From Planctomycetota bacterium (GTDB lineage Bacteria; Planctomycetota; UBA8108; SXIK01), in assembly GCA_965223265.1 (NCBI GenBank), contig OZ244999.1:4736001-4800000 (forward strand): a stretch of 64,000 bases of DNA, read 5' to 3'. The notes beneath the pieces were generated by a model. The model was given only the letters and a program-made list of their open reading frames with translations. It was not told where the DNA came from and searched no databases. A program made the position numbers and the translations under genes. How positions within the stretch are numbered: position 1 is the first letter of the stretch; the number at the start of each line of letters is the position of its first letter. Shown here in pieces: positions 40,294 to 52,829 of the stretch.

Positions 40294-41427
40294 TCACAAA
40301 CCCTCCGCCCGCGCCCACAGCGCCGAGATCGCACGGTTGACCTCGTTCGCCGCATCCATCTGAATCAAGTGTCCCTTGCCGTCGATGATCTGCGTCTCGA
40401 CGTGATCTGGCAGATCGCTGGCGTGTGCAGCCGGGACGATCGCGTCCTGCTCGCCCCAGACCACCAAGGTCGGGACGGCGAGTTGCTCGAGCACTTCGCG
40501 CAGTAAGTTCGTCTGCTTGCCGTCAGCGCTGAACGCACTCGCGATCTTTCGTAGGGCCGCCTCGACGCCATCGAGCCGCTTGTACTTCAGGAGATCCTCA
40601 ACGAGCTGACGCGGGACCTTCGCTGTGTCCGCGAAGAGCTTCTGCACTTGTCGCTTCATCTCCTTGCGGCGACTGGCACTCGCGAACCCATCGATGTAGT
40701 CACTGTCGATCTCGGCGCCGAGGCCCGCACTGGCGAGGAGCGCCAGCGACCGGACGCGGTTGTCGGACCTCCGAGCCAGCTCCATTGCGACCGCTCCGCC
40801 GAGGGAATGGCCGACGAGGTGAACCGGTCCGAGCTCGAGCGCTGCCATGAATCTTTCGACGACGTCTGCGAACTCAGCCACCGTTCCGGTGTCAACGGTC
40901 TTGGAGGAGCCGCCGTGGCCAGGCAAGTCGATCGCATAAACCGCGCGATCACTCGCCAGCACTTCGTGATTGAAGAGCCAGTTGTTGAGGTCGCCACCGA
41001 AACCGTGGATGAGGATCGCGTTCGCGTCTCCGCCGCCGCGCCGCAAGTAGCGGATCGTCTGCCCTGCTACGTCGACCTGCTCGGGAGATGCAGCCGCGTC
41101 GGCGCCTGCCTCGGCTGCCGGCACGAAGTGAGCTTTGAAATCCGTGACGAGCGCGTCAATCTCGTCGTCGCTCACTTCGGCCGCCGCAATGATTCCAAGC
41201 AGACCGCCGACGGGGAGAACGTCACCGGCAGCGGCGATGCAGCGCCTCAGAACTCCACCATCGCTCGCCTCCACCGCACTGGTGATCTTGTCGGTCTCCA
41301 CCTCCATCAGCTGGTCGCCCGGCTGCACGGTCGCGCCGGCTTCGACGAGCCACTCTACCACCTTTCCCTCCTTCATGGAGAGTCCCCACTTCGGCATCGT
41401 GACGCTACGAATGGTGGAATCGGTCAT
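40294..41427 (-). CDS. acoC: acetoin dehydrogenase E2 (lipoyl domain + alpha/beta hydrolase)
   Basis: MPKWGLSMKEG, VETDKI lipoyl Lys, HGFGGDLNNWLFN, GHSLGG. Confidence 0.92.
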   Translation of the reverse strand: MTDSTIRSVTMPKWGLSMKEGKVVEWLVEAGATVQPGDQLMEVETDKITSAVEASDGGVLRRCIAAAGDVLPVGGLLGIIAAAEVSDDEIDALVTDFKAHFVPAAEAGADAAASPEQVDVAGQTIRYLRRGGGDANAILIHGFGGDLNNWLFNHEVLASDRAVYAIDLPGHGGSSKTVDTGTVAEFADVVERFMAALELGPVHLVGHSLGGAVAMELARRSDNRVRSLALLASAGLGAEIDSDYIDGFASASRRKEMKRQVQKLFADTAKVPRQLVEDLLKYKRLDGVEAALRKIASAFSADGKQTNLLREVLEQLAVPTLVVWGEQDAIVPAAHASDLPDHVETQIIDGKGHLIQMDAANEVNRAISALWARAEGL

Positions 41428-42437
41428 CGCGAATACCCCACCACCTCGCGGGCGGCGGCGGCGATGCGTTCGGCATTCGGGATGTAGAGATCCTCCAGGT
41501 CATCGCTGAAGGGAACTGGCGTGTGCGGTGGAGTGACCTTACGGATCGGCGCCCGGAGATTAGCAAAGGCTTTCTCGGCAACGAGCGACGAGATGTCGGC
41601 TGCCATGTTGCAGCGCGGTGACGCTTCGTCGACGACGACCAGGCGGCCCGTGTTTTCCACGCTCTCAAGCACCGTCTCCTCGTCGAGCGGCGCCGTCGTT
41701 CGTAGGTCGATGACCTCGCAGTCGATGCCTTCCTCGGCGAGCGTGTCAGCCGCTGCAGCAGCCATGTGGACCATGCGCCCGAGCGTGACGATGGTGAGGT
41801 CGCCGCCCTCGCGGACGATCTCCGCCTCACCGAACGGCACGGTGTAGCTCTCCTCGGGCACTTCGCCTTCGAGACTGTAGAGCAGCTTGTGTTCGAAGAA
41901 GATGACCGGATCGTTGTCGCGGATCGCTTCGATGAGGAGTCCTTTGGCGTCGTACGGCGTGGCCGGGATGACACACTTGAGGCCCGGGATGTGGGTGAAC
42001 ACCGGGTAGAGGCATTGGGAGTGTTGAGCGGCAGCACGGAACCCCGCCCCAATCATGGTGCGGATCACGACGGGCGTTTCAGCGCGGCCGCCAAACATGT
42101 AACGGAACTTCGCCGCCTGATTAAAAATCTGGTCGAAGCAGACGCCCATGAAGTCGACAAACATGAGCTCGGCCACGGGCCGAAGGCCGCAGGTCGCCGC
42201 GCCGACCGCCGCACCGATGAATGCCGACTCACTGATCGGCGTGTCCATGACGCGGTCGCCAAACTTGCCGTAGAGGCCTTTGGTCACTCCGAGCACACCG
42301 CCCCAGGCGTCCATCTCCCCTTCAGCGCCGTGGCCACCGGCGACGTCCTCTCCCATGACGACAACCGTGTCGTCATTCGCCATCTCCTGCGCCAGAGCTT
42401 CATTGATCGCTTGTTGAAACGTGATGGTTCGTGCCAT
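41424..42437 (-). CDS. acoB: acetoin dehydrogenase E1 beta subunit
   Basis: GEDV, DAWGGVLGVTKGL, DTPISE, AAQHSQ. Confidence 0.93.
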   Translation of the reverse strand: MARTITFQQAINEALAQEMANDDTVVVMGEDVAGGHGAEGEMDAWGGVLGVTKGLYGKFGDRVMDTPISESAFIGAAVGAATCGLRPVAELMFVDFMGVCFDQIFNQAAKFRYMFGGRAETPVVIRTMIGAGFRAAAQHSQCLYPVFTHIPGLKCVIPATPYDAKGLLIEAIRDNDPVIFFEHKLLYSLEGEVPEESYTVPFGEAEIVREGGDLTIVTLGRMVHMAAAAADTLAEEGIDCEVIDLRTTAPLDEETVLESVENTGRLVVVDEASPRCNMAADISSLVAEKAFANLRAPIRKVTPPHTPVPFSDDLEDLYIPNAERIAAAAREVVGYSR

Positions 42438-42451
42438 CGGTTTCCCCCTTC

Positions 42452-43420
42452 TCAGTAGGAGACGTAGACGTCGGTGAGGAGATCGGCCGCGGTCGGCTTC
42501 GGGTCTGCCTTCGCTTTCTCTACGGCAGCATCGATCTGCGTTCTGACTTCGCCGTCGATCTTGTCCAGCTGCGCGGCGTCCACGAGCCCGGCGTCGGCGA
42601 CTTGCCGCGCGAAGTTGGTGATGCAGTCGCGAGTCTCTCGCAGCTTCTCGACTTCCTGCGGACCGCGGTAGGTCTGCGCGTCGCCTTCGAAGTGTCCGTA
42701 GTAGCGATTCACCTTGCACTCGATCAGCGTCGGCCCGCCGCCGTCGCGCGCCCTCGCGATGGCTTCCCCCGCGGTCTCGTAAACAGCGAAGAAGTCATGC
42801 CCGTCGATGGTCACTCCCGGCATGTTGAAGCCGCTGGCGCGATCGGAGACGTCGTCGCAGGCGACCGAATACTTGCAGGACGTCGCCTCAGCGTAACCGT
42901 TGTTCTCAACAACGAAGATGCACGGAAGATTCCATACCGCAGCGAGGTTGAGGCTCTCGAAGGTTGTGCCCTGATTGGAGCCACCGTCGCCGACGAATCC
43001 TACGGCTACGCCGTTGGTGCCCAGCTGTTTCGCCGCCAGCCCGGCGCCGCAGACCAGCGGCGGTCCGCCGCCGACGATCCCGTTCGCTCCCATCATCCCC
43101 TTGTCGAGGTCGGCGATGTGCATCGAGCCGCCCTTTCCGGCGCAGAGACCTGTCGATCGACCATAGATCTCCGCCATCATGAGGTCGACATCACATCCTT
43201 TGGCGATGCAGTGACCGTGGCCACGGTGCGTGCTGGCGATTCTGTCGCGGTCGCCCAAGTGAAGACAGACTCCCGTCGCGATCGCTTCTTCGCCGGCGTA
43301 GAGATGGACGAATCCAGGGATTTCGCCGGTCGCGAATTCGACGTGGAGTCGCTCTTCGAACTCACGGATCGTCCTCATGGTACGGTACGCCGTGAGTAAC
43401 TCATCTCGACTGAGTTCCAT
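42452..43420 (-). CDS. acoA: acetoin dehydrogenase E1 alpha subunit
   Basis: GFVHLYAGEEA, STHRGHGH, GDG...NN TPP motif, GHFEGD. Confidence 0.93.
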   Translation of the reverse strand: MELSRDELLTAYRTMRTIREFEERLHVEFATGEIPGFVHLYAGEEAIATGVCLHLGDRDRIASTHRGHGHCIAKGCDVDLMMAEIYGRSTGLCAGKGGSMHIADLDKGMMGANGIVGGGPPLVCGAGLAAKQLGTNGVAVGFVGDGGSNQGTTFESLNLAAVWNLPCIFVVENNGYAEATSCKYSVACDDVSDRASGFNMPGVTIDGHDFFAVYETAGEAIARARDGGGPTLIECKVNRYYGHFEGDAQTYRGPQEVEKLRETRDCITNFARQVADAGLVDAAQLDKIDGEVRTQIDAAVEKAKADPKPTAADLLTDVYVSY

Positions 43421-43421
43421 G

Positions 43422-44495
43422 CTAAGCCCTTTCGGTTCGTGCTTTTGGTTGGCGGCCGTCTCGCTGCTCGCTAACTGCCAGGAGACCATCCTTTGCGGCG
43501 ATCATCATCACCTGCGCGACATCGATCGTGAGAGGTCCGTCGCGCGTCACCCGAATCGATACTTGATCGTTCTCGGTGAATTCTATCTCCCTCTCGCCGT
43601 CAAGCGCAATCACACCGCGAGTGGCTTCAACTCGTCGGGGCTCGTCGAGCGCGAGCTGATCGACCCGTCCAACGCCGAACGTCCGGACGAGTCCGGGGGC
43701 GAGCGGCGCGTGAATGATCCGGGTCGCTTCGGCGGGAGAGAGGAGCTGAACGTACACTCCACCCGGGGTGGCACGCGAGAGCGGACGGAGAAGCCCCGCG
43801 ATCGACGAGAGCCCTACCGCGTCCGGCTCGGCGAAGGCGGCGAAGATCTCTCGGATACTCTCCGCGCGCCACAGTGCACGCGACCCGGTCCAGAGTTCGT
43901 CGGAGATCGCAACGTCGACAAGCGCCAGATCACTCGGTGCGCCGTTGACGTCGATGCGAAGCACCTTGCTGCGATGCGTCGCGTCACTCGTCGGCACTCG
44001 TCCAGTCGCAACCAGCCCGGTCGCCAGCCCGGCGACCGTGGCTTCTCGCATTGCCGGAAACACGTTGTTGGTGCCCGTGGAAAGAGCCATGAGTGGGATC
44101 TCCCCGCACGCTTTCGCCACCAGTCGATGGGTGCCGTCGCCACCGAGGACGACGATCGCTTGAACCTCCGCCGCCACCATCGCAGTCGTCGCGCGTACGG
44201 TGTCCATGGGCCCAGACTCGATTTCCATATCAATGAGTTCGACTCGCGGCCATGCAGGATCGTCCGACCGGCGGGAACTGAGCGCCCGGTCGACGCGAGC
44301 GGTGAGGCCGTCGGCGTCCGGCATGATGAGGACTCGCTCGACGCCGGTGATCGCCAGCGCCGAGAGTAGCCGGCCGATCATGCTGCACTTCTCGGCGATC
44401 GGAAAGACCGATGCCCGCGCGACCAATCGACGGATGTCGCGACCGGAAGCCGGGTTCGCCACAATGCCGACGGTGACTGGCGCACCCCGTTTCAT
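43422..44495 (-). CDS. acoX: AcoX (ATP-NAD kinase family)
   Basis: ANPASGRDIRRL, GGDGT, STGTNNVFP, ALDGERE; position at the head of the aco operon. Confidence 0.88.
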   Translation of the reverse strand: MKRGAPVTVGIVANPASGRDIRRLVARASVFPIAEKCSMIGRLLSALAITGVERVLIMPDADGLTARVDRALSSRRSDDPAWPRVELIDMEIESGPMDTVRATTAMVAAEVQAIVVLGGDGTHRLVAKACGEIPLMALSTGTNNVFPAMREATVAGLATGLVATGRVPTSDATHRSKVLRIDVNGAPSDLALVDVAISDELWTGSRALWRAESIREIFAAFAEPDAVGLSSIAGLLRPLSRATPGGVYVQLLSPAEATRIIHAPLAPGLVRTFGVGRVDQLALDEPRRVEATRGVIALDGEREIEFTENDQVSIRVTRDGPLTIDVAQVMMIAAKDGLLAVSEQRDGRQPKARTERA

Positions 44496-44785: not shown

Positions 44786-46003
44786 ATGACATCGACCATG
44801 CCTCACAGCACGATCTCCGCGACTTTTCACCTCACTCACAACTGTAACTTGCGGTGCGCGTACTGCTACACGGGGGAAAAGTTCGGCGCTGGCATGTCGG
44901 GTGAGACCGCCGGACACGCCGTCGACTTCTCGCTCGCCGAGGCGAGGCGGCAGTCAGCTGACCACCTGGAGGTCGTCTTCTTCGGGGGGGAGCCTCTCCT
45001 GCGGCGCGATCTCCTGTATTGGGTCGTCGACCAAGTTCGCGCACGAGCGGGTGACGATCTCGATGTGTCGTTCAAGATGAGCACGAACGGCATCCTCCTG
45101 AACGAACGCACCGTTAGCGAGTTGGCACGACGCGAGGTCTACGTTTCGATCAGCCTCGACGGCGACCCGGCAGCGCACGACGCACAGCGACCCGACGCGA
45201 ACGGGAACGGCACGGCCGCGCGACTGACCGAGGTCATCCCACGGCTCCTGGCGTGGAACCCGTGCGCCGCTGTGAACTGCGTCGTTACGCCGCATTCGGC
45301 CGCACACCTCGACCGATCTGTTGCCTGGCTGTTCGAGCACGGCTTTCGCTACGTCTCGACTGCTATCGACTACTCCGGCAAGTGGACCCGCCGCTCCTTT
45401 CGCGCGCTCAGAAAAGCATATCGTCGCCTCGGGGACTGGTACATCGACCGGACGCTCGCGGGCCATAAGTTCTACCTCAGCTGTTTCGATGAGCGCATCC
45501 GTACGCGCACCCGCGGCCCACTCGAGCGCTCAGAGCGCTGCTCGATCGGCTTGCGCCAGTTCTCGATCGCCCCCTCAGGCCGCATCTACCCCTGCGTTCA
45601 ATTCGTTCGAGAGGACGACGACGACGAGTTCGTCATCGGCGATGTCGTGAACGGATTCAGCGAGCGTCGCCGACACGCGGTCAACAGGTCTTCCGAAGGC
45701 GAGCGCGCCGAATGCAGTGGCTGCGTCCTCATCGAGCGTTGCTCGAGCTGGTGCGCCTGCGTCAACTGGCAGTCGACCGGGAGCCTCGATCGCGCCAGTC
45801 CAATGGTCTGCGAGCACGACCGCATGCTGATGCCGATCGCCGACCGCGTCGCCAACTCGCTCTGGAAACGACGCAGCTCCCTCTTCATTCACAAACAGTA
45901 CAACCCAGCGTTCCCTGTTCTCGATTTCCTCGAAGACGTCGTCGTCCGAGAGCTCGACACCGCCGAGGTCGACGCCAGCGACAACATCTCGGAAAACTTC
46001 TAG
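44786..46003 (+). CDS. radical SAM / SPASM domain protein
   Basis: CNLRCAYC, FFGGEPLL, STNG, SISLDG; SPASM C..GRIYPC..CSGC-x5-C-x3-C. Confidence 0.94.
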   Translation: MTSTMPHSTISATFHLTHNCNLRCAYCYTGEKFGAGMSGETAGHAVDFSLAEARRQSADHLEVVFFGGEPLLRRDLLYWVVDQVRARAGDDLDVSFKMSTNGILLNERTVSELARREVYVSISLDGDPAAHDAQRPDANGNGTAARLTEVIPRLLAWNPCAAVNCVVTPHSAAHLDRSVAWLFEHGFRYVSTAIDYSGKWTRRSFRALRKAYRRLGDWYIDRTLAGHKFYLSCFDERIRTRTRGPLERSERCSIGLRQFSIAPSGRIYPCVQFVREDDDDEFVIGDVVNGFSERRRHAVNRSSEGERAECSGCVLIERCSSWCACVNWQSTGSLDRASPMVCEHDRMLMPIADRVANSLWKRRSSLFIHKQYNPAFPVLDFLEDVVVRELDTAEVDASDNISENF

Positions 46004-46014
46004 GAGAACCCGCG

Positions 46015-46953
46015 ATGAGAGATCGCCCTTTCGAAGTCAAACCCGTCCGGAGCTACGGGGTGGCCAAGTACCCCTCGGACGAGGATCCGGATCCGTGCTC
46101 GTACCCGGCCCCCGTGCCTTTCCCCTTCAGTCGTGCTTTCATCTCCGCACTCACCGGGTTCGGTATCGCCGCGGGCGGCGCTGTGCTGGCCGCTGAGGAT
46201 TCCAAGGACGCCACCGCGTCAAAGAGCCCTGAATCGCCGAACCCGTTCGCTGTAAAATACAGCGGCCTCCCGCATCGCACCTCGCCCTACGGCACTGGGC
46301 AGCCGTGCTATGTCCAGGAAGACCTCGCTCGCAAGGTCATCGAACGGGTCTTCCGTGAAGAAGGCATTCGGTTGGTGAAGAATCAGCGTCTGCGCGACGA
46401 GGAAGTCGAATTCGTAACCGACGGGTACGACTCCCTGACCGGCATCGGGTACGTCTTCGCGGACGCCTCTAACCTCGACGACGACGCCTACATTTCGTGG
46501 ATGGCGAGGTCCCCCACGGAACAGAGCGCGAAGGCCCTCCGCACGGCGCTTCGATTAGAAAAGCACCGGGCGGAGAAACATCTCGCCAAGGAGATCGACG
46601 CGGCGCTGGCCCTTGAGGACGACGCCGCGTTCCTCACAGCCTGCAAGCGGGTCCGTCACCTCCTCAAGCGCAGCAAGCTATCCCTGTCGGAGGCGAAGAA
46701 ACTGGAAGAGCGCGCCGAGGAAGGCGAACAGTTCGTCGCGGTCATCAGTCGTTTCGACAGACGCTACGCGACGTCGTGCCTCCCCAGCGCCCTTCAGCGT
46801 CAAAAGCTGAAGGCGATCGTTGAGATTTCGGACGAGAAAGAGCGTGCCGCGGCGCTGAACAAGTTTCGTGAGGCGGCGGCGAGAGACTCGCTCGAGCGAC
46901 TGGAGCGTCACGTCAAGGAGTACATCCGTTGGGCGCGCTCGCAGGGGATGTGA
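46015..46953 (+). CDS. hypothetical protein with leader-like N-terminus and signal peptide; candidate radical SAM substrate
   Basis: AGGAG RBS overlapping the rSAM stop; FEVKPVRSYGVAKYP, then a hydrophobic segment ending VLAA. Confidence 0.8.
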   Translation: MRDRPFEVKPVRSYGVAKYPSDEDPDPCSYPAPVPFPFSRAFISALTGFGIAAGGAVLAAEDSKDATASKSPESPNPFAVKYSGLPHRTSPYGTGQPCYVQEDLARKVIERVFREEGIRLVKNQRLRDEEVEFVTDGYDSLTGIGYVFADASNLDDDAYISWMARSPTEQSAKALRTALRLEKHRAEKHLAKEIDAALALEDDAAFLTACKRVRHLLKRSKLSLSEAKKLEERAEEGEQFVAVISRFDRRYATSCLPSALQRQKLKAIVEISDEKERAAALNKFREAAARDSLERLERHVKEYIRWARSQGM

Positions 46954-48354: not shown

Positions 48355-48779
48355 GCTTTGTGCACCATGCGCCGCTAGCGATGAACTCGTTCGATGTCTT
48401 GATCGACAGCGAACACACTCCGCCGGCTACGTTTACCGACTCTCGACTCGCGCAGACGGTCATCGGCCGCAGGCCGCCGAACGCGGTGACGGTGGACGGC
48501 CACAACGTGAACGCCGTCGAAACTTGCGCGAAATCTCCCGGGTGCGCAGCACTCACCTGCGCAGGAGTCTTCGTCGACTGACCGGCGAGGTGCGCCAACC
48601 GATTCAAAAACCCACCGCGCTTGAATGGAAACCAGGTGAAACTCTGAGGCTGACTGTAATGCGCTGTTTGCCAGTAGTTGACGCTGCGTTCTTGCGCTAC
48701 TACCATCATTCCGTGGTCTATCACTCCCGCGAGGCCGCGAGGACTCCACGGCGATCTTGACTTTCTGATCGGGCGCAGA

Positions 48780-49730
48780 ATGGAAGACTCCAAATTCGTA
48801 CTCGCCGCTGTCTGCTCCTCGCTCGAAGAGGCTACCGCTGCGGGAATCACTCTCGAAGAGGCTCGGATCCCCGTTTTGGTAGATCCCAACGACGCGTCAG
48901 GAGCCTTCCCCAATCTTCAAGAGGTCAAAGGTATCCATCTACTGGTTCCTGAAGACCAGCTTGGCGCCGCTCGTGAGCTTCTTGATGAACGAGTACCTCT
49001 CGACGAGCTCGTTGAAGAGGACGCTGATGAGCTCTCAAGAGCAGAGGCCACAGTCTTTGGCTCGGAGAAACCCTCTCGCAGTTTCCTCCCGAGAGTGTGC
49101 GACGTGCTCCTCCTCGTCACGATCGGATTCTTGCTTGGCTTTCTCTGCACGCACTATGGACTCCTCGAAGGATTTTCCTCTTGGCTCCCGACCGACAGTC
49201 GCTCTCGCTTGGCTCAAGACGCTAACGGGGACGGAAAAGCGGACAATTGGTTAACCTTCGCGCCGAATGGGGACATGCTACGATTCGAATCCGATCAGAA
49301 CTTCGATGGATCACCAGATGCATGGTACGTCTACAAGTCGGGGATTCCGGTTCGTTCGCGACTGGATAGAGACTTTGACGGGGTACCAGATGCGTGGTAC
49401 GTCTACGAGTCAGGGATTCCGATTCGCTCAAAGCTCGACAGAGACTTCGACGGGTCAGAGGATACGTGGGAAATCTACGAGTCCGGAATTCTGATGCTCT
49501 CGAAGATCGACATCGACGGCGACGAAACGCCTGACGTCTACGAACACTATGAGCACGGCGTGGTTTCCGAGGTGGAATGGAGACCCACGGGCAACGAACC
49601 TGTCAGACGCGAAGTCTATTCCAACGGCGTGCTCCAGGAAGTCTATGTGCGCACCCCTTCGGGTATGAAGCTCTCCGAAAGACTCGATCGATCTGGTGCG
49701 CCCTTGCCGCTCACCGACCTGGGACAATGA
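48780..49730 (+). CDS. membrane protein: DUF2007-like N-terminal domain, TM helix, DxD/NxDGxPD repeats
   Basis: GIHLLVPEDQLGAARELL; hydrophobic helix; about five 22-aa repeats of the RDFDGxPDAWYVYESG type. Confidence 0.72.
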   Translation: MEDSKFVLAAVCSSLEEATAAGITLEEARIPVLVDPNDASGAFPNLQEVKGIHLLVPEDQLGAARELLDERVPLDELVEEDADELSRAEATVFGSEKPSRSFLPRVCDVLLLVTIGFLLGFLCTHYGLLEGFSSWLPTDSRSRLAQDANGDGKADNWLTFAPNGDMLRFESDQNFDGSPDAWYVYKSGIPVRSRLDRDFDGVPDAWYVYESGIPIRSKLDRDFDGSEDTWEIYESGILMLSKIDIDGDETPDVYEHYEHGVVSEVEWRPTGNEPVRREVYSNGVLQEVYVRTPSGMKLSERLDRSGAPLPLTDLGQ

Positions 49731-49960: not shown

Positions 49961-50371
49961 ATGCACATAGACGTGGCGAAGTTGTCTGCAGTGATTGCTG
50001 GTTTCGCGGTCGCAGTGACGTCGCTCGTAGTTGCTGCTCTCGTCACGCGAATCATCTATCGATTTTGCCTCAACCGGGAACATCGGGGCGCTTACGGTCC
50101 GGAGTATCTCGTCGCGTGCACGATTTTCGTGCTGCCGGGTGTGACCACGATGCTGCGCCCCGGGAGTCTTCTTTATTCCATCTTTTACTTTGTCGATGCT
50201 GTTCCAGGCATTCAGTCCGGTGTTGACGGCTTCACCGGTACGCTCGCTGTGATCATGGGCCACATGGTGTGGGGATCTCTCACCGGCTGGATCATCGTCG
50301 CATGCATCGAGCTGGTACGGCGACAGCGTCGGCAAATGGCGCCAAGATCATCGACACCCACCGACACGTAG
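49961..50371 (+). CDS. small membrane protein
   Basis: Three hydrophobic segments, GGAG upstream. Confidence 0.55.
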   Translation: MHIDVAKLSAVIAGFAVAVTSLVVAALVTRIIYRFCLNREHRGAYGPEYLVACTIFVLPGVTTMLRPGSLLYSIFYFVDAVPGIQSGVDGFTGTLAVIMGHMVWGSLTGWIIVACIELVRRQRRQMAPRSSTPTDT

Positions 50372-50394
50372 AACGATCAAGTTTTTTCACCCTT

Positions 50395-52829
50395 ATGCGC
50401 ATCTTCTCCATCTTCGTACTCCTCCAGACAGCCTCGGCCTGCAGCGTGACCCCGGATCTCAAGAGCGAAACCGCGCCCTGGTCGATCGATCGATCACACC
50501 GGCTACTGATCCGCGTTGACCCGGTGGAGATCACGCGCGATGCCGACGAGCTGGTCGCCCGAGCAGAGATCGACTTTGATCGCGTCTTGCGGTCTGCCCG
50601 CTGCGATCTGTCGACTATCACTATTCAGGAATATGACGCGGCAACGGGTCAGGTGATCTCTTTCATGGGCAGCGGCGAACGCCCGGTTCGTGTCTACGAC
50701 CTGAGCATTCCCTGGAAGTTTCCGGAGCGTCAGGGCTATGCGCATGGAAGCGATGGCACGGGATTGCCGGCGACTTTCGTTGAGGGCGGCGGTCGATTCG
50801 TTCCGGCAGTTGGCGAGGGGCGCAAGGCGTCTGTTGCGTGGTCCCACCTCCAGCGAGCGCAGCAGTCGTCGCACTATGCGATCTACTTCGATCTCTTACC
50901 GGCCGGCGCCGCACCTTCGCTCTCGGTTCCCGGATTCGTCGGTGATGGATCGAACCGCTGTGCAGCAGATGCCGACAGCTTCTTCCCGCTCTACCACAGC
51001 CGCGTCGACACCGCTGATCTCGACGGCGACGGACGATTCGACCTGGTCGTCGGCAACCTGAACGGCACTCTCCTCTGGTATCCCAACGTCGGTCGCCCTG
51101 GGGCACCACGCTTCGAGCTGGCGCGATGGATCGTCGCGGACGCAGGCGACCCGCTCGACGTTGGCTACAGCTCCGCCCCGCGCGCGGCCGACTGGGACGG
51201 CGACGGCGATCTCGATTGATCGTCGGGGCGGAGAAGGAGTCGCTCGTGTTCTTTCGCAATGAGGGAACCGTCACGAACCCGAAGTTTTACCTGCAAGGGC
51301 TCCTCAGCGCTGACGGCAACCCGATCCGCGTCCCCAAGTCGCCCTGTGAAGAGGATCCAGACGGCAGGGTTTTTCCGTACGACTACTATCCCATACCGGA
51401 GATCGTCGATTGGGACGGCGACGGCGACCTCGACCTGCTCGCTGGAGGTTATATCACTGGACGCATCTGGTTTTATGAGAACGTCGCTGGCGCAGCGCGC
51501 GATGAGCCTGAGCTCACGTTTCGCGGCGCCCTGCAGGCGGACGGTCGTGACCTCGATGTGACGTGGATGGCTTCCCCGTGCGCGGCGGATTTCGACAGCG
51601 ACGGTGACCTCGACCTGATCAGCGGCGCCATGCAGATCACCGCGGGACTGGGTGATCTATCCGACCCTGAGAAGTTTCTCTGGTACTACGAGAACGTCGG
51701 AAGCCGAAGCGCGCCACAACTGACGCTGCGGCCCTTTCCTGCGAAAGGAAAGTTCCGCCACGGTTCACTGGGAACTCCACGGGCGATCGACTTCAATCGC
51801 GATGGTTTGCTCGACCTCGTCGTCAGCGCGTCGCGCGATCTGCTCCTCTTAGCCAATGTCGGCTCGTCAAACAATCCTGTCTTCGATGCGTCGACTGAAC
51901 CACTGCGGGCACCGTGGGGAAGTGCGCCGCTCAGATTCCAGCAACTGCTCGACTACAATGGTGACGGCTGGCCCGATCTCTTTGGCGGCGCCGAGGTGCA
52001 GGACAACATGCCTTTCTTCGCCGGGGCGGCAGTAACGCTCTGTGATGGGCAGAATGGGAACCGTTATACAGGCAAGAACGTGATCCCGCTTCTCGAATCA
52101 GGGCAGCGCATCCATCATCCGACACCGCGCGGCGATGCGTGGGACTATCGTGCACTTGCCGATCTCGACGGCGATGACCTGCTGGATGTTCTCTCGGGCG
52201 TTCATGAAGGCCACATCTGGTTTCATCGAAATCGGGGCACGCGTGAGCAAGGGAGAGTCGATGCAGCAGGCGTCCGTCTGAAACTTATCGATGGCGAGCT
52301 GCTCCGCGTCGGCCTCCCCCCAACGCCAGAAGATGAAAATGCCTTCGATGAACTGCAAGGTGCGCGAACAACCGTGGCGAGCGCGGACTTCAACCGCGAC
52401 GGACGACCGGATCTACTGGTCTGCGATACGTATGGCGTCGTGCGAATCTTCCTGCAGGCGCCCGGAGACTTGCTGCGTTTCGAACCCGCTGTCGTGATCG
52501 CACGCGAAGGCAAAGTTCGGCTGACCGCGCAGCCAATCGATTGGAACGGCGATGGCTGGGATGACGTGATCGCCATGTACGCCAGCGAAGAGAGCTACTT
52601 GATCTTGAACCGAGCCGTGCCAGGGAAAGCGGCGTTCGATGCCCCGAAACCGTTGAAACTACCGAGATATCCCATGTCCTGGCCGCTTCTGCACGTCGCC
52701 GACTGGAACAACGACGGCGACGAGGACCTGCTACTTCACTACGGCACCATGCTCCGCTACATCGAGCGCTCGTTTGTCGACCACGGCTATGTGCCGGCGA
52801 CGATCATTGCGCACGAAGCGCAGCGGTAG
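50395..52829 (+). pseudogene. FG-GAP/VCBS repeat protein split by a frameshift at about 51216
   Basis: DWDGDGDLD repeats in both halves; GAT-TGA-TC becomes D-L-I-V-G with one added base; may be a sequencing error. Confidence 0.8.

Follow-up and report, generated by a model that had tools for sequence, protein, structure and literature searches.

A radical SAM/SPASM enzyme and its leader-bearing partner protein: a candidate protein-modification pair in Planctomycetota and other phyla

In a window of 64,000 nucleotides from a Planctomycetota genome (contig OZ244999.1, positions 4,736,001 to 4,800,000 of the forward strand; coordinates below are those of the window), a gene for a radical S-adenosylmethionine (SAM) enzyme with a SPASM domain is followed directly by a gene for a 312-aa protein, here called its partner. 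Across homologous loci the two genes are coupled, the N-terminal leader and a short internal core of the partner are conserved, and the aromatic residue at position 92 of this core has repeatedly been exchanged for Cys. On balance, we think it probable that the enzyme grips the leader, modifies the Tyr-Gly-Thr loop of the core before export, and leaves the signal segment to be cleaved afterwards; that a modification occurs, where it falls and that the partner is exported is what we infer from the sequences. An initial annotation had proposed a new modification system here, and the observation behind it was confirmed: the enzyme gene is complete, its stop codon overlaps the TAGGAG ribosome-binding site of the partner gene, and all motifs quoted for the partner are present (KPVRSYGVAKYP, RAFISALTGFGIAAGGAVLAA, NPF..SGLPHRTSPYGTGQPCY and FVTDGYDSLTGIGYVF). 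The features of the pair are as follows.

44786..46003, + strand: radical SAM/SPASM enzyme, 405 aa, without an N-terminal RiPP (ribosomally made, post-translationally modified peptide) recognition element (RRE), with an FFGGEP motif and eight conserved SPASM Cys
46001..46006, + strand: TAGGAG, the enzyme stop TAG (46001-46003) overlapping the partner ribosome-binding site, 8 nt before the ATG
46015..46953, + strand: partner open reading frame, 312 aa, ATG at 46015, on the same strand as the enzyme
46015..46128, + strand: leader, aa 1-38, V-x-P-[VL]-x-x-Y-x-x-[PA]-[KR]-Y-P-S-x-x-D-x-[ND]-P ... P-[YF]-P-F
46129..46194, + strand: signal-peptide-like segment, aa 39-60, ending in VLAA, recognized by hydropathy and regular expression
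46240..46311, + strand: core, aa 76-99, NPF..SGLP..S-P-Y92-G-T94-G-Q-P, the presumed modification site
46312..46953, + strand: folded domain, aa 100-312, in a Vsr/DUF559-like PD-(D/E)XK arrangement with helical inserts

The two genes are probably translationally coupled, and both are single-copy in the 9.18-Mb genome. Enzyme and partner also stay together elsewhere. In seven of nine genome loci the enzyme was encoded directly upstream of the partner or fused to it in one reading frame, and the remaining two loci stop at no more than 320 nt from the match. Metagenomes were scanned with a pattern; 18 of the 106 loci obtained belonged to the family, and the rest were mostly noise. The enzyme lay upstream in all nine metagenome loci (eight distinct) that could be evaluated, i.e., those that were leader-bearing, first in their array and provided with enough upstream DNA; the other family members comprised three Cys variants and six leader-bearing loci set aside for their shortness or for lying in a tandem array. 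Among 401 genomes of the phylum, seven had a partner above 200 bits. One of these partners was leaderless; the other six had the leader and were all preceded by the enzyme, with one of these loci cut by a contig end and another fused. The partner was present in all five phylum genomes with an enzyme above 50% identity. After overlaps were removed, 20 distinct leader-bearing loci could be evaluated, the window included, and in all 20 the enzyme was directly upstream or fused, which bears out the coupling that the initial annotation had proposed to check by co-occurrence. Searches of the class and order around genome G401 gave no new [YF]GTG-family member beyond those of G805 and G810, and plasmids returned just two matches, at 27%.

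Two loci depart from the usual layout. In L004:3964-6783 (= G362; P0185, 682 aa), enzyme and partner share one frame in a single assembly, as a real fusion or through a lost stop, and in L167 (G368:C32) a family enzyme lies in two frames, its second half joined to a partner's C-terminal part by deletion or misassembly.

Neither a Pfam or NCBIfam family nor a solved sequence (best E 0.17) matched the partner, whose homologues amounted to 195 representatives at E ≤ 0.001, of which 150 were listed. Over 127 leader-bearing homologues, mean top-residue conservation was 0.61 for leader and core alike, compared with 0.17 for the linker, so the partner motifs are conserved more than chance would allow and the expected conservation of leader and core held. 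In the 9.18-Mb genome the leader expression had a single match, and a hidden Markov model (HMM) of the leader found the partner alone (E 2.6e-13; next 0.11). At residue 92 the 127 homologues have F (76), Y (50) or C (1); [F/Y]-G-[T/V/N] occurs in 121 of 122 leader-bearing partners, with G93 and G95 each kept in 121 of 122. The initial annotation had placed the target in the SPYGTGQPC region, of which the [Y/F]GTGxP loop remains a likely site and the Cys drops out: Cys98 (GQPC) is found in this protein only (1 of 127). A thioether through Cys98 was rejected on this lack of conservation, and a Cys thioether on this substrate is therefore unlikely.

Thirty-three homologues lacked the leader, 17 with a hydrophobic segment before the core and 16 without it. 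Residue 92 was Cys in 14 of the 17 with the segment; the 16 others, most of them judged truncated, comprised four with Cys, seven with F/Y, two with Leu and three without a core. The GTG motif was intact in 118 of 122 leader-bearing proteins compared with 4 of 18 leaderless Cys proteins. A tree of 55 rows was built from the full set of 18 Cys proteins plus 37 chosen rows, with the leader, signal and core columns excluded. On this tree the Cys trait needs nine changes, starred branches force at least six, and none of 200 bootstrap trees allowed a single origin. No family enzyme was found with the four evaluable Cys genes (genomes G810 and G042; loci L045 and L060). One Cys protein, P0056, has at its start a remnant of the enzyme C-terminus (19.3 bits, compared with 5.6 for the best of 2000 shuffles) joined to a decayed leader, a second member of its cluster starts likewise, and a membrane-protein gene that follows the pair in G401 and G805, relatives of G810 with the enzyme, is also kept in G810. 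The trees themselves give no direction, but the P0056 remnant and the downstream gene of G810 favour loss; P0044, which has both a leader and Cys, may be an intermediate. The switch from aromatic residue to Cys makes residue 92 the likely site of modification, names the residue to test and offers sister pairs as natural controls (P0051/P0094, P0084/P0159 and G401/G810). A disulfide partner for Cys92 in the leaderless proteins was considered and rejected, as no second Cys is conserved in them and none is invariant in the downstream membrane protein.

Structure prediction of the complex was run with enzyme residues 1-392, three clusters and SAM, together with partner residues 1-101. The interface score (ipSAE) was 0.86 compared with 0.00 for the best control; the docking mark was passed by 116 of 157 solved pairs, compared with 2 of 215 mismatched ones, counts that are only roughly valid for this complex. 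Docking runs shared at least 50% of contacts, and the predicted local distance difference test (pLDDT) of the partner was 56. Confident contacts in the model involve partner residues 3-22, 26-28, 34-39, 41-42 and 45 and enzyme residues 200-244 and 309-390, with leader Tyr19 predicted on D353, A356, N357 and W360 of the enzyme. The C-terminal extension of the enzyme is thus predicted to bind the leader, with partner residues 3-22 lying on it, and the earlier suggestion that the leader is a recognition tag gains support from both its conservation and this model. The same prediction served the initial annotation only in part: the leader was docked and the core was not placed in the active site.

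The enzyme has its CxxxCxxC motif at C20/C24/C27 and matched PF04055 above cut-off (52.5 bits), whereas SPASM PF13186 gave 17.7 bits, slightly below its cut-off. In 107 close homologues the conserved SPASM Cys are C252, 270, 310, 313, 319, 323, 325 and 342, which include a CxC pair and, with Cys325, an extra invariant Cys; within the C-terminal helical extension (residues ~337-390), D353 and F367 are invariant. The RRE is missing, as the SAM motif begins at residue 20 and CteB aligns from its residue 99. Among the best 25 of 81 NCBIfam matches no cut-off was reached, PapB ranked first and the splicease-type families TIGR04103 and TIGR04133 did not appear. The scores for PapB, CteB and QhpD were 201.7, 127.7 and 130.7 bits against cut-offs of 340, 425 and 453, respectively; cyclophane-synthase profiles (FxsB, YhhB, AmcB) gave 67-91 bits against 370-445, and the profile of the anaerobic sulfatase-maturing enzyme (anSME; TIGR03942) 77.6 against 349. 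An orphan anSME working on sulfatases was ruled out by this low score. With 8000 candidates scored, 538 enzyme homologues were found at E ≤ 1e-40, the named ones including Novipirellula, Pirellulales, Haliscomenobacter, Lentimonas, Victivallaceae and Deltaproteobacteria, and named family members come from Planctomycetota, Bacteroidota, Verrucomicrobiota, Deltaproteobacteria and Sumerlaeota. The enzyme-partner family has no curated model.

CteB, anSME and ChlB are the closest solved sequences and folds, and the nearest families are the ranthipeptide maturases CteB (PDB 5WGG/5WHY; TIGR03974), PapB (NF047865) and QhpD (TIGR03906). The enzyme resembles CteB in sequence (E 1.2e-30), fold (template modelling (TM) score 0.76), FFGGEP motif and SPASM domain. 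Unlike these maturases, it stays under every cut-off, lacks the RRE, conserves eight SPASM Cys, among them a CxC pair missing in CteB, and would act on a 312-aa exported protein in which no donor Cys is conserved (Cys98 and Cys92 in 1 of 127 each). Passages of PMC11002830 describe a Cys-Thr S-Cγ link made by CteB and the modification of a protein subunit by QhpD. Three-residue cyclophane synthases (triceptides) offer a second comparison: ChlB (PDB 9GM3), solved with its leader, is close to the enzyme (TM 0.73), and the partner core fits the aromatic-X-X3 motif by which a section of PMC12912966 defines three-residue cyclophanes. Here the substrate would instead be an exported, folded protein that offers one site, and the profile families are not matched at cut-off. 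The anSME structures (PDB 4K36-4K39; TM 0.73) likewise have a SPASM domain without an RRE and belong to an enzyme that acts on a protein before export; unlike anSME substrates, the partner has no sulfatase domain and no C/S-x-P-x-R (CxPxR) motif. The residue after the YPC Cys is Val in the enzyme, at the place of the Asp that we take to be the base of anSME. Spliceotide systems (PlpX, RhaX; XYG to α-keto-β-amide) and the TIGR04133 radical SAM/lipoprotein pairs share with the partner an aromatic-Gly motif after a leader, but theirs is another enzyme lineage, and in the partner family the Tyr of XYG is not invariant. The enzyme belongs to none of the tested families and would work like anSME or QhpD with a RiPP-style leader recognition added. 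To our knowledge, few radical SAM enzymes mature whole exported proteins (anSME, QhpD), and the literature searched, with most subscription journals outside its coverage, gave no description of the pair. If the proposed reading is true, a two-gene system in which the leader directs an RRE-free enzyme to an internal loop of a folded protein would make a simple tool for protein engineering.

Behind the leader, the partner has a hydrophobic (h-) region (best 12-residue hydropathy 1.93) followed by AxA, and a loose lipobox expression fits 42 of 122 leader-bearing homologues. Export of the partner, which the initial annotation envisaged, is suggested by this arrangement of h-region and AxA or lipobox, and cleavage of the partner by signal peptidase I seems likely. 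Export of the family by the twin-arginine (Tat) route was rejected, since a twin Arg occurs in merely 8 of 122 leader-bearing homologues. The structure model of the partner was confident from residue 71 on (mean pLDDT 88.9). Residues 101-311 matched 3R3P with Z 7.5 (root-mean-square deviation 3.6, 96 aligned), followed by NGO0050 (Z 6.5), Bax1 (6.4) and Vsr (5.8); Foldseek gave no structure match at E ≤ 0.001, and atlas matches scored at most 0.81, with all ten of the best named ones sharing a family or clan. The degenerate PD-(D/E)XK-like fold suggested earlier therefore stands as a lead only, because Z is under 8. Although the fold resembles nucleases of the Vsr/DUF559/I-Bth0305I type, the partner would be exported, position 147 is V/I/L/A in the family (Val147 here) where sister families keep Glu (GFE), and the Asp position (136) varies (D 65, T 22, S 19, N 11; n=122), with the active-site register set by motif likeness. 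The conserved acidic metal ligands of PD-(D/E)XK nucleases are not kept, and since a hydrophobic residue replaces the Glu, the domain is read as a probably inactive scaffold.

A stand-alone form of the domain occurs in Planctomycetes (L152-L157), where it keeps DGWD..GFEFLSSEDDDHDDL and is fused to a Lys/Ala-rich histone-like tail. These proteins have no signal, leader or core, the enzyme is not beside them, and the one tested had no Pfam match.

Distant enzymes (31-43% identity) adjoin partners with the same P..Y..YP type of leader and other cores, namely GCVxxxPP, YGNS and Pro-rich repeats of xG[DEKR]. In a tree of 40 rows the enzyme clades track core type, with Shimodaira-Hasegawa-like approximate likelihood ratio test (SH-aLRT) supports of 99 for [YF]GTG, 86 for GCV, 99 for YGNS and 92 for the Pro-rich cores. 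Gly is the sole residue common to the [YF]GT, GCV, YGN and Pro-rich xG[DEKR] cores and, where the domain is present, lies at -7 to -10 from its first helix.

In genome G014 (L188:6222-9830; G014:C152), a TIGR04133-like radical SAM gene (357 bits, cut-off 425) is followed by two leaderless lipoproteins that carry PAYGPAPAYGP and PLYGVAPAYGVP motifs (AYGP, LYGV) on the PD-(D/E)XK-like domain of the partner (36-40 bits in an HMM search with the partner profile; shuffles ≤ 6.3). This radical SAM protein is unrelated to the enzyme, its best matches being TIGR04133 and TIGR04103, and is a candidate splicease acting on a folded carrier. TIGR04133 members are presumably spliceases; a literature search did not confirm this. 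A general role of the PD-(D/E)XK-like domain as a display scaffold is a lead, because it comes from one genome only.

In the mechanism that we propose, the C-terminal extension of the enzyme would grip the N-terminal leader of the partner, and the enzyme would oxidize the Tyr92-Gly-Thr94 loop in the cytoplasm, ahead of export. Export and signal cleavage would follow, and the modified loop would be displayed on the probably inactive nuclease-like scaffold. As for the chemistry, hydrogen abstraction at Thr94, as by CteB on a Thr, could lead to a C-C bond with the ring of residue 92, giving a three-residue cyclophane-type staple (-2 Da). This aryl-Thr crosslink is our favoured, if tentative, choice because of the aromatic-X-X3 motif, the exchange of F and Y, the T/V/N at position 94 and the attack of CteB on Thr; the sister clade with a Y-G-N core was also counted for ring chemistry. 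In the GCVxxxPP clade, which has its Cys near this register, the same geometry would yield a thioether, and after loss of the enzyme a free Cys92 would take over the job of the modified loop. As a guess, the exported loop makes covalent or tight contact with an external partner. A bolder version, doubtful in our estimate, is that a Cys-like reactive group (a benzylic β-thiol, a dehydro-Phe/Tyr or a Phe-tolerant ketoamide) is put on a whole exported protein, that at least two unrelated radical SAM lineages share the scaffold and that Cys replaced the modification at least six times. Chemistry other than the options named in this text receives very little weight.

Several points weigh against this account, in which the grip on the leader is predicted and the loop oxidation judged likely. 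The complex model left core residues 84-97 away from the active site, and the docking pass may partly reflect likeness to solved enzyme-leader complexes, because the structurally close ChlB-leader complex (ChlB-ChlA) has already been solved. A cyclophane leaves Cys as its substitute unexplained, the enzyme scores far under all cyclophane-synthase cut-offs, and a fixed aromatic residue is missing from the sister clades whose cores are GCV or Pro-rich xG[DEKR], the Gly being the one residue common to all cores. As regards the switch, the 37 comparison rows of the tree were hand-picked, the independent-pairs test on the full set was underpowered and not significant (three starred pairs, p 0.25), and eight further homologues counted as leaderless keep F/Y, most of them judged N-terminally truncated. 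Among the genomes from which the enzyme was absent, G042 is 86% complete in 1010 contigs and G810 is incomplete too; the Cys proteins also offer no second conserved Cys.

The specificity of the replacement for Cys is best accounted for if docking and site are the same and the enzyme activates residue 92 at its benzylic Cβ, forming a β-thiol, a thioether or an α,β-dehydro residue that an encoded Cys could mimic: Ser is equally one base from the Tyr and Phe codons, yet Cys was found in 14 of 17. F and Y would both be acceptable, the nearest enzyme families make C-S bonds at non-α carbons, and Cys325 provides an extra invariant Cys in the enzyme. The eight conserved SPASM Cys, however, suggest that no iron is open for a sulfur donor, no gene for a sulfur donor recurred among the neighbours, and the GCV clade already has Cys and yet keeps the enzyme, so that we rate benzylic activation as conceivable but less than probable. 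Chemistry centred on Gly throughout the family, with its Cα oxidized and trapped by the next side chain (Thr O, or Cys S in GCV) or with the backbone cleaved, would fit the one residue that all core types have in common and the near-invariance of G93 and G95. It would leave the replacement of the aromatic residue upon leader loss unexplained, some leader-bearing members have Val instead of Thr94, and we find it distinctly improbable.

Parts of PMC11414181, PMC11626197 and PMC11002830 report that known spliceases act at XYG, where they excise tyramine and yield ketoamide protease inhibitors. An independently evolved, Phe-tolerant splicease would excise the aromatic unit at X-[Y/F]-G and leave an α-ketoamide electrophile, e.g., a protease-inhibiting warhead. 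In its favour, G014 has the same domain with AYGP/LYGV in nearly the same register beside its TIGR04133/TIGR04103-like enzyme; however, Phe outnumbers Tyr in the leader-bearing homologues while described spliceases excise tyramine from Tyr, and the enzyme sits in a CteB/PapB-like lineage with no splicease-type family in the 25 best matches, which makes this outcome very unlikely. It is unlikely, too, that no covalent change takes place and that the enzyme is a leader-binding chaperone or regulator, or acts elsewhere, with the Cys switch as relaxed packing. Such a role would agree with a core that is predicted to be well folded within the domain (pLDDT 90-97) and was not docked in the active site, but the catalytic and SPASM Cys are intact, the enzyme clades correspond to core types, GTG is under selection that depends on the leader, and the genome has a single leader-bearing gene. 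The leader-guided modification of the Tyr-Gly-Thr loop thus remains the reading that we prefer.

Further relatives of the pair vary in copy number and core. On G092:C596 (L171, L182, L184, L186) and in L015, at least four tandem leader-bearing partners have G[DERG][VL][AR] cores on the same domain, and for those of G092:C596 a family enzyme lies on another contig. In L024-L031, L033 and L039, distant enzymes (31-34%) are accompanied by Pro-rich proteins; these have a P..YP leader, in most cases a twin-Arg signal, and several copies of a [LIVF]xG[GDEK]xxxP motif. In one genus (L034-L036, L038), still more distant SPASM enzymes (27-28%) precede a conserved protein of 140 aa that contains a W..GGI.I.HLH motif.

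Around the pair itself, inspection by eye of both flanking gaps gave no convincing small precursor gene; as the initial annotation had stated, no sulfatase, short precursor or PqqD/RRE gene is near, the sole PqqD match of the genome lying ~1 Mb off. A search of the locus found no sigma-70-like promoter, and terminator-like matches were not above chance. Assembled contigs from two of three runs cover the whole stretch with zero differing letters and may be its source. A hydrophobic protein of ~200 aa without a Pfam family follows the partner directly in L001-L005, L007, L112, L166 and L189; it is present in many Planctomycetota loci, the enzyme-less G810 included, and was not found in the genome of the window. 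Upstream of the enzyme and divergent from it (40294-44495, - strand) is what we take to be an acetoin-dehydrogenase-like cluster, made up of an NAD-kinase-like gene, genes for the alpha and beta subunits of E1 and a lipoyl/hydrolase fusion. This cluster appears ordinary and unrelated and was not seen in the related loci listed. Downstream of the pair, the window encodes a protein with a weak DUF2007 match and DxDxDG repeats (48678-49730, + strand) and an FG-GAP-like repeat protein (50269-52829, + strand) that is apparently split into overlapping frames (50269-51219 and 51126-52829), possibly by a frameshift.

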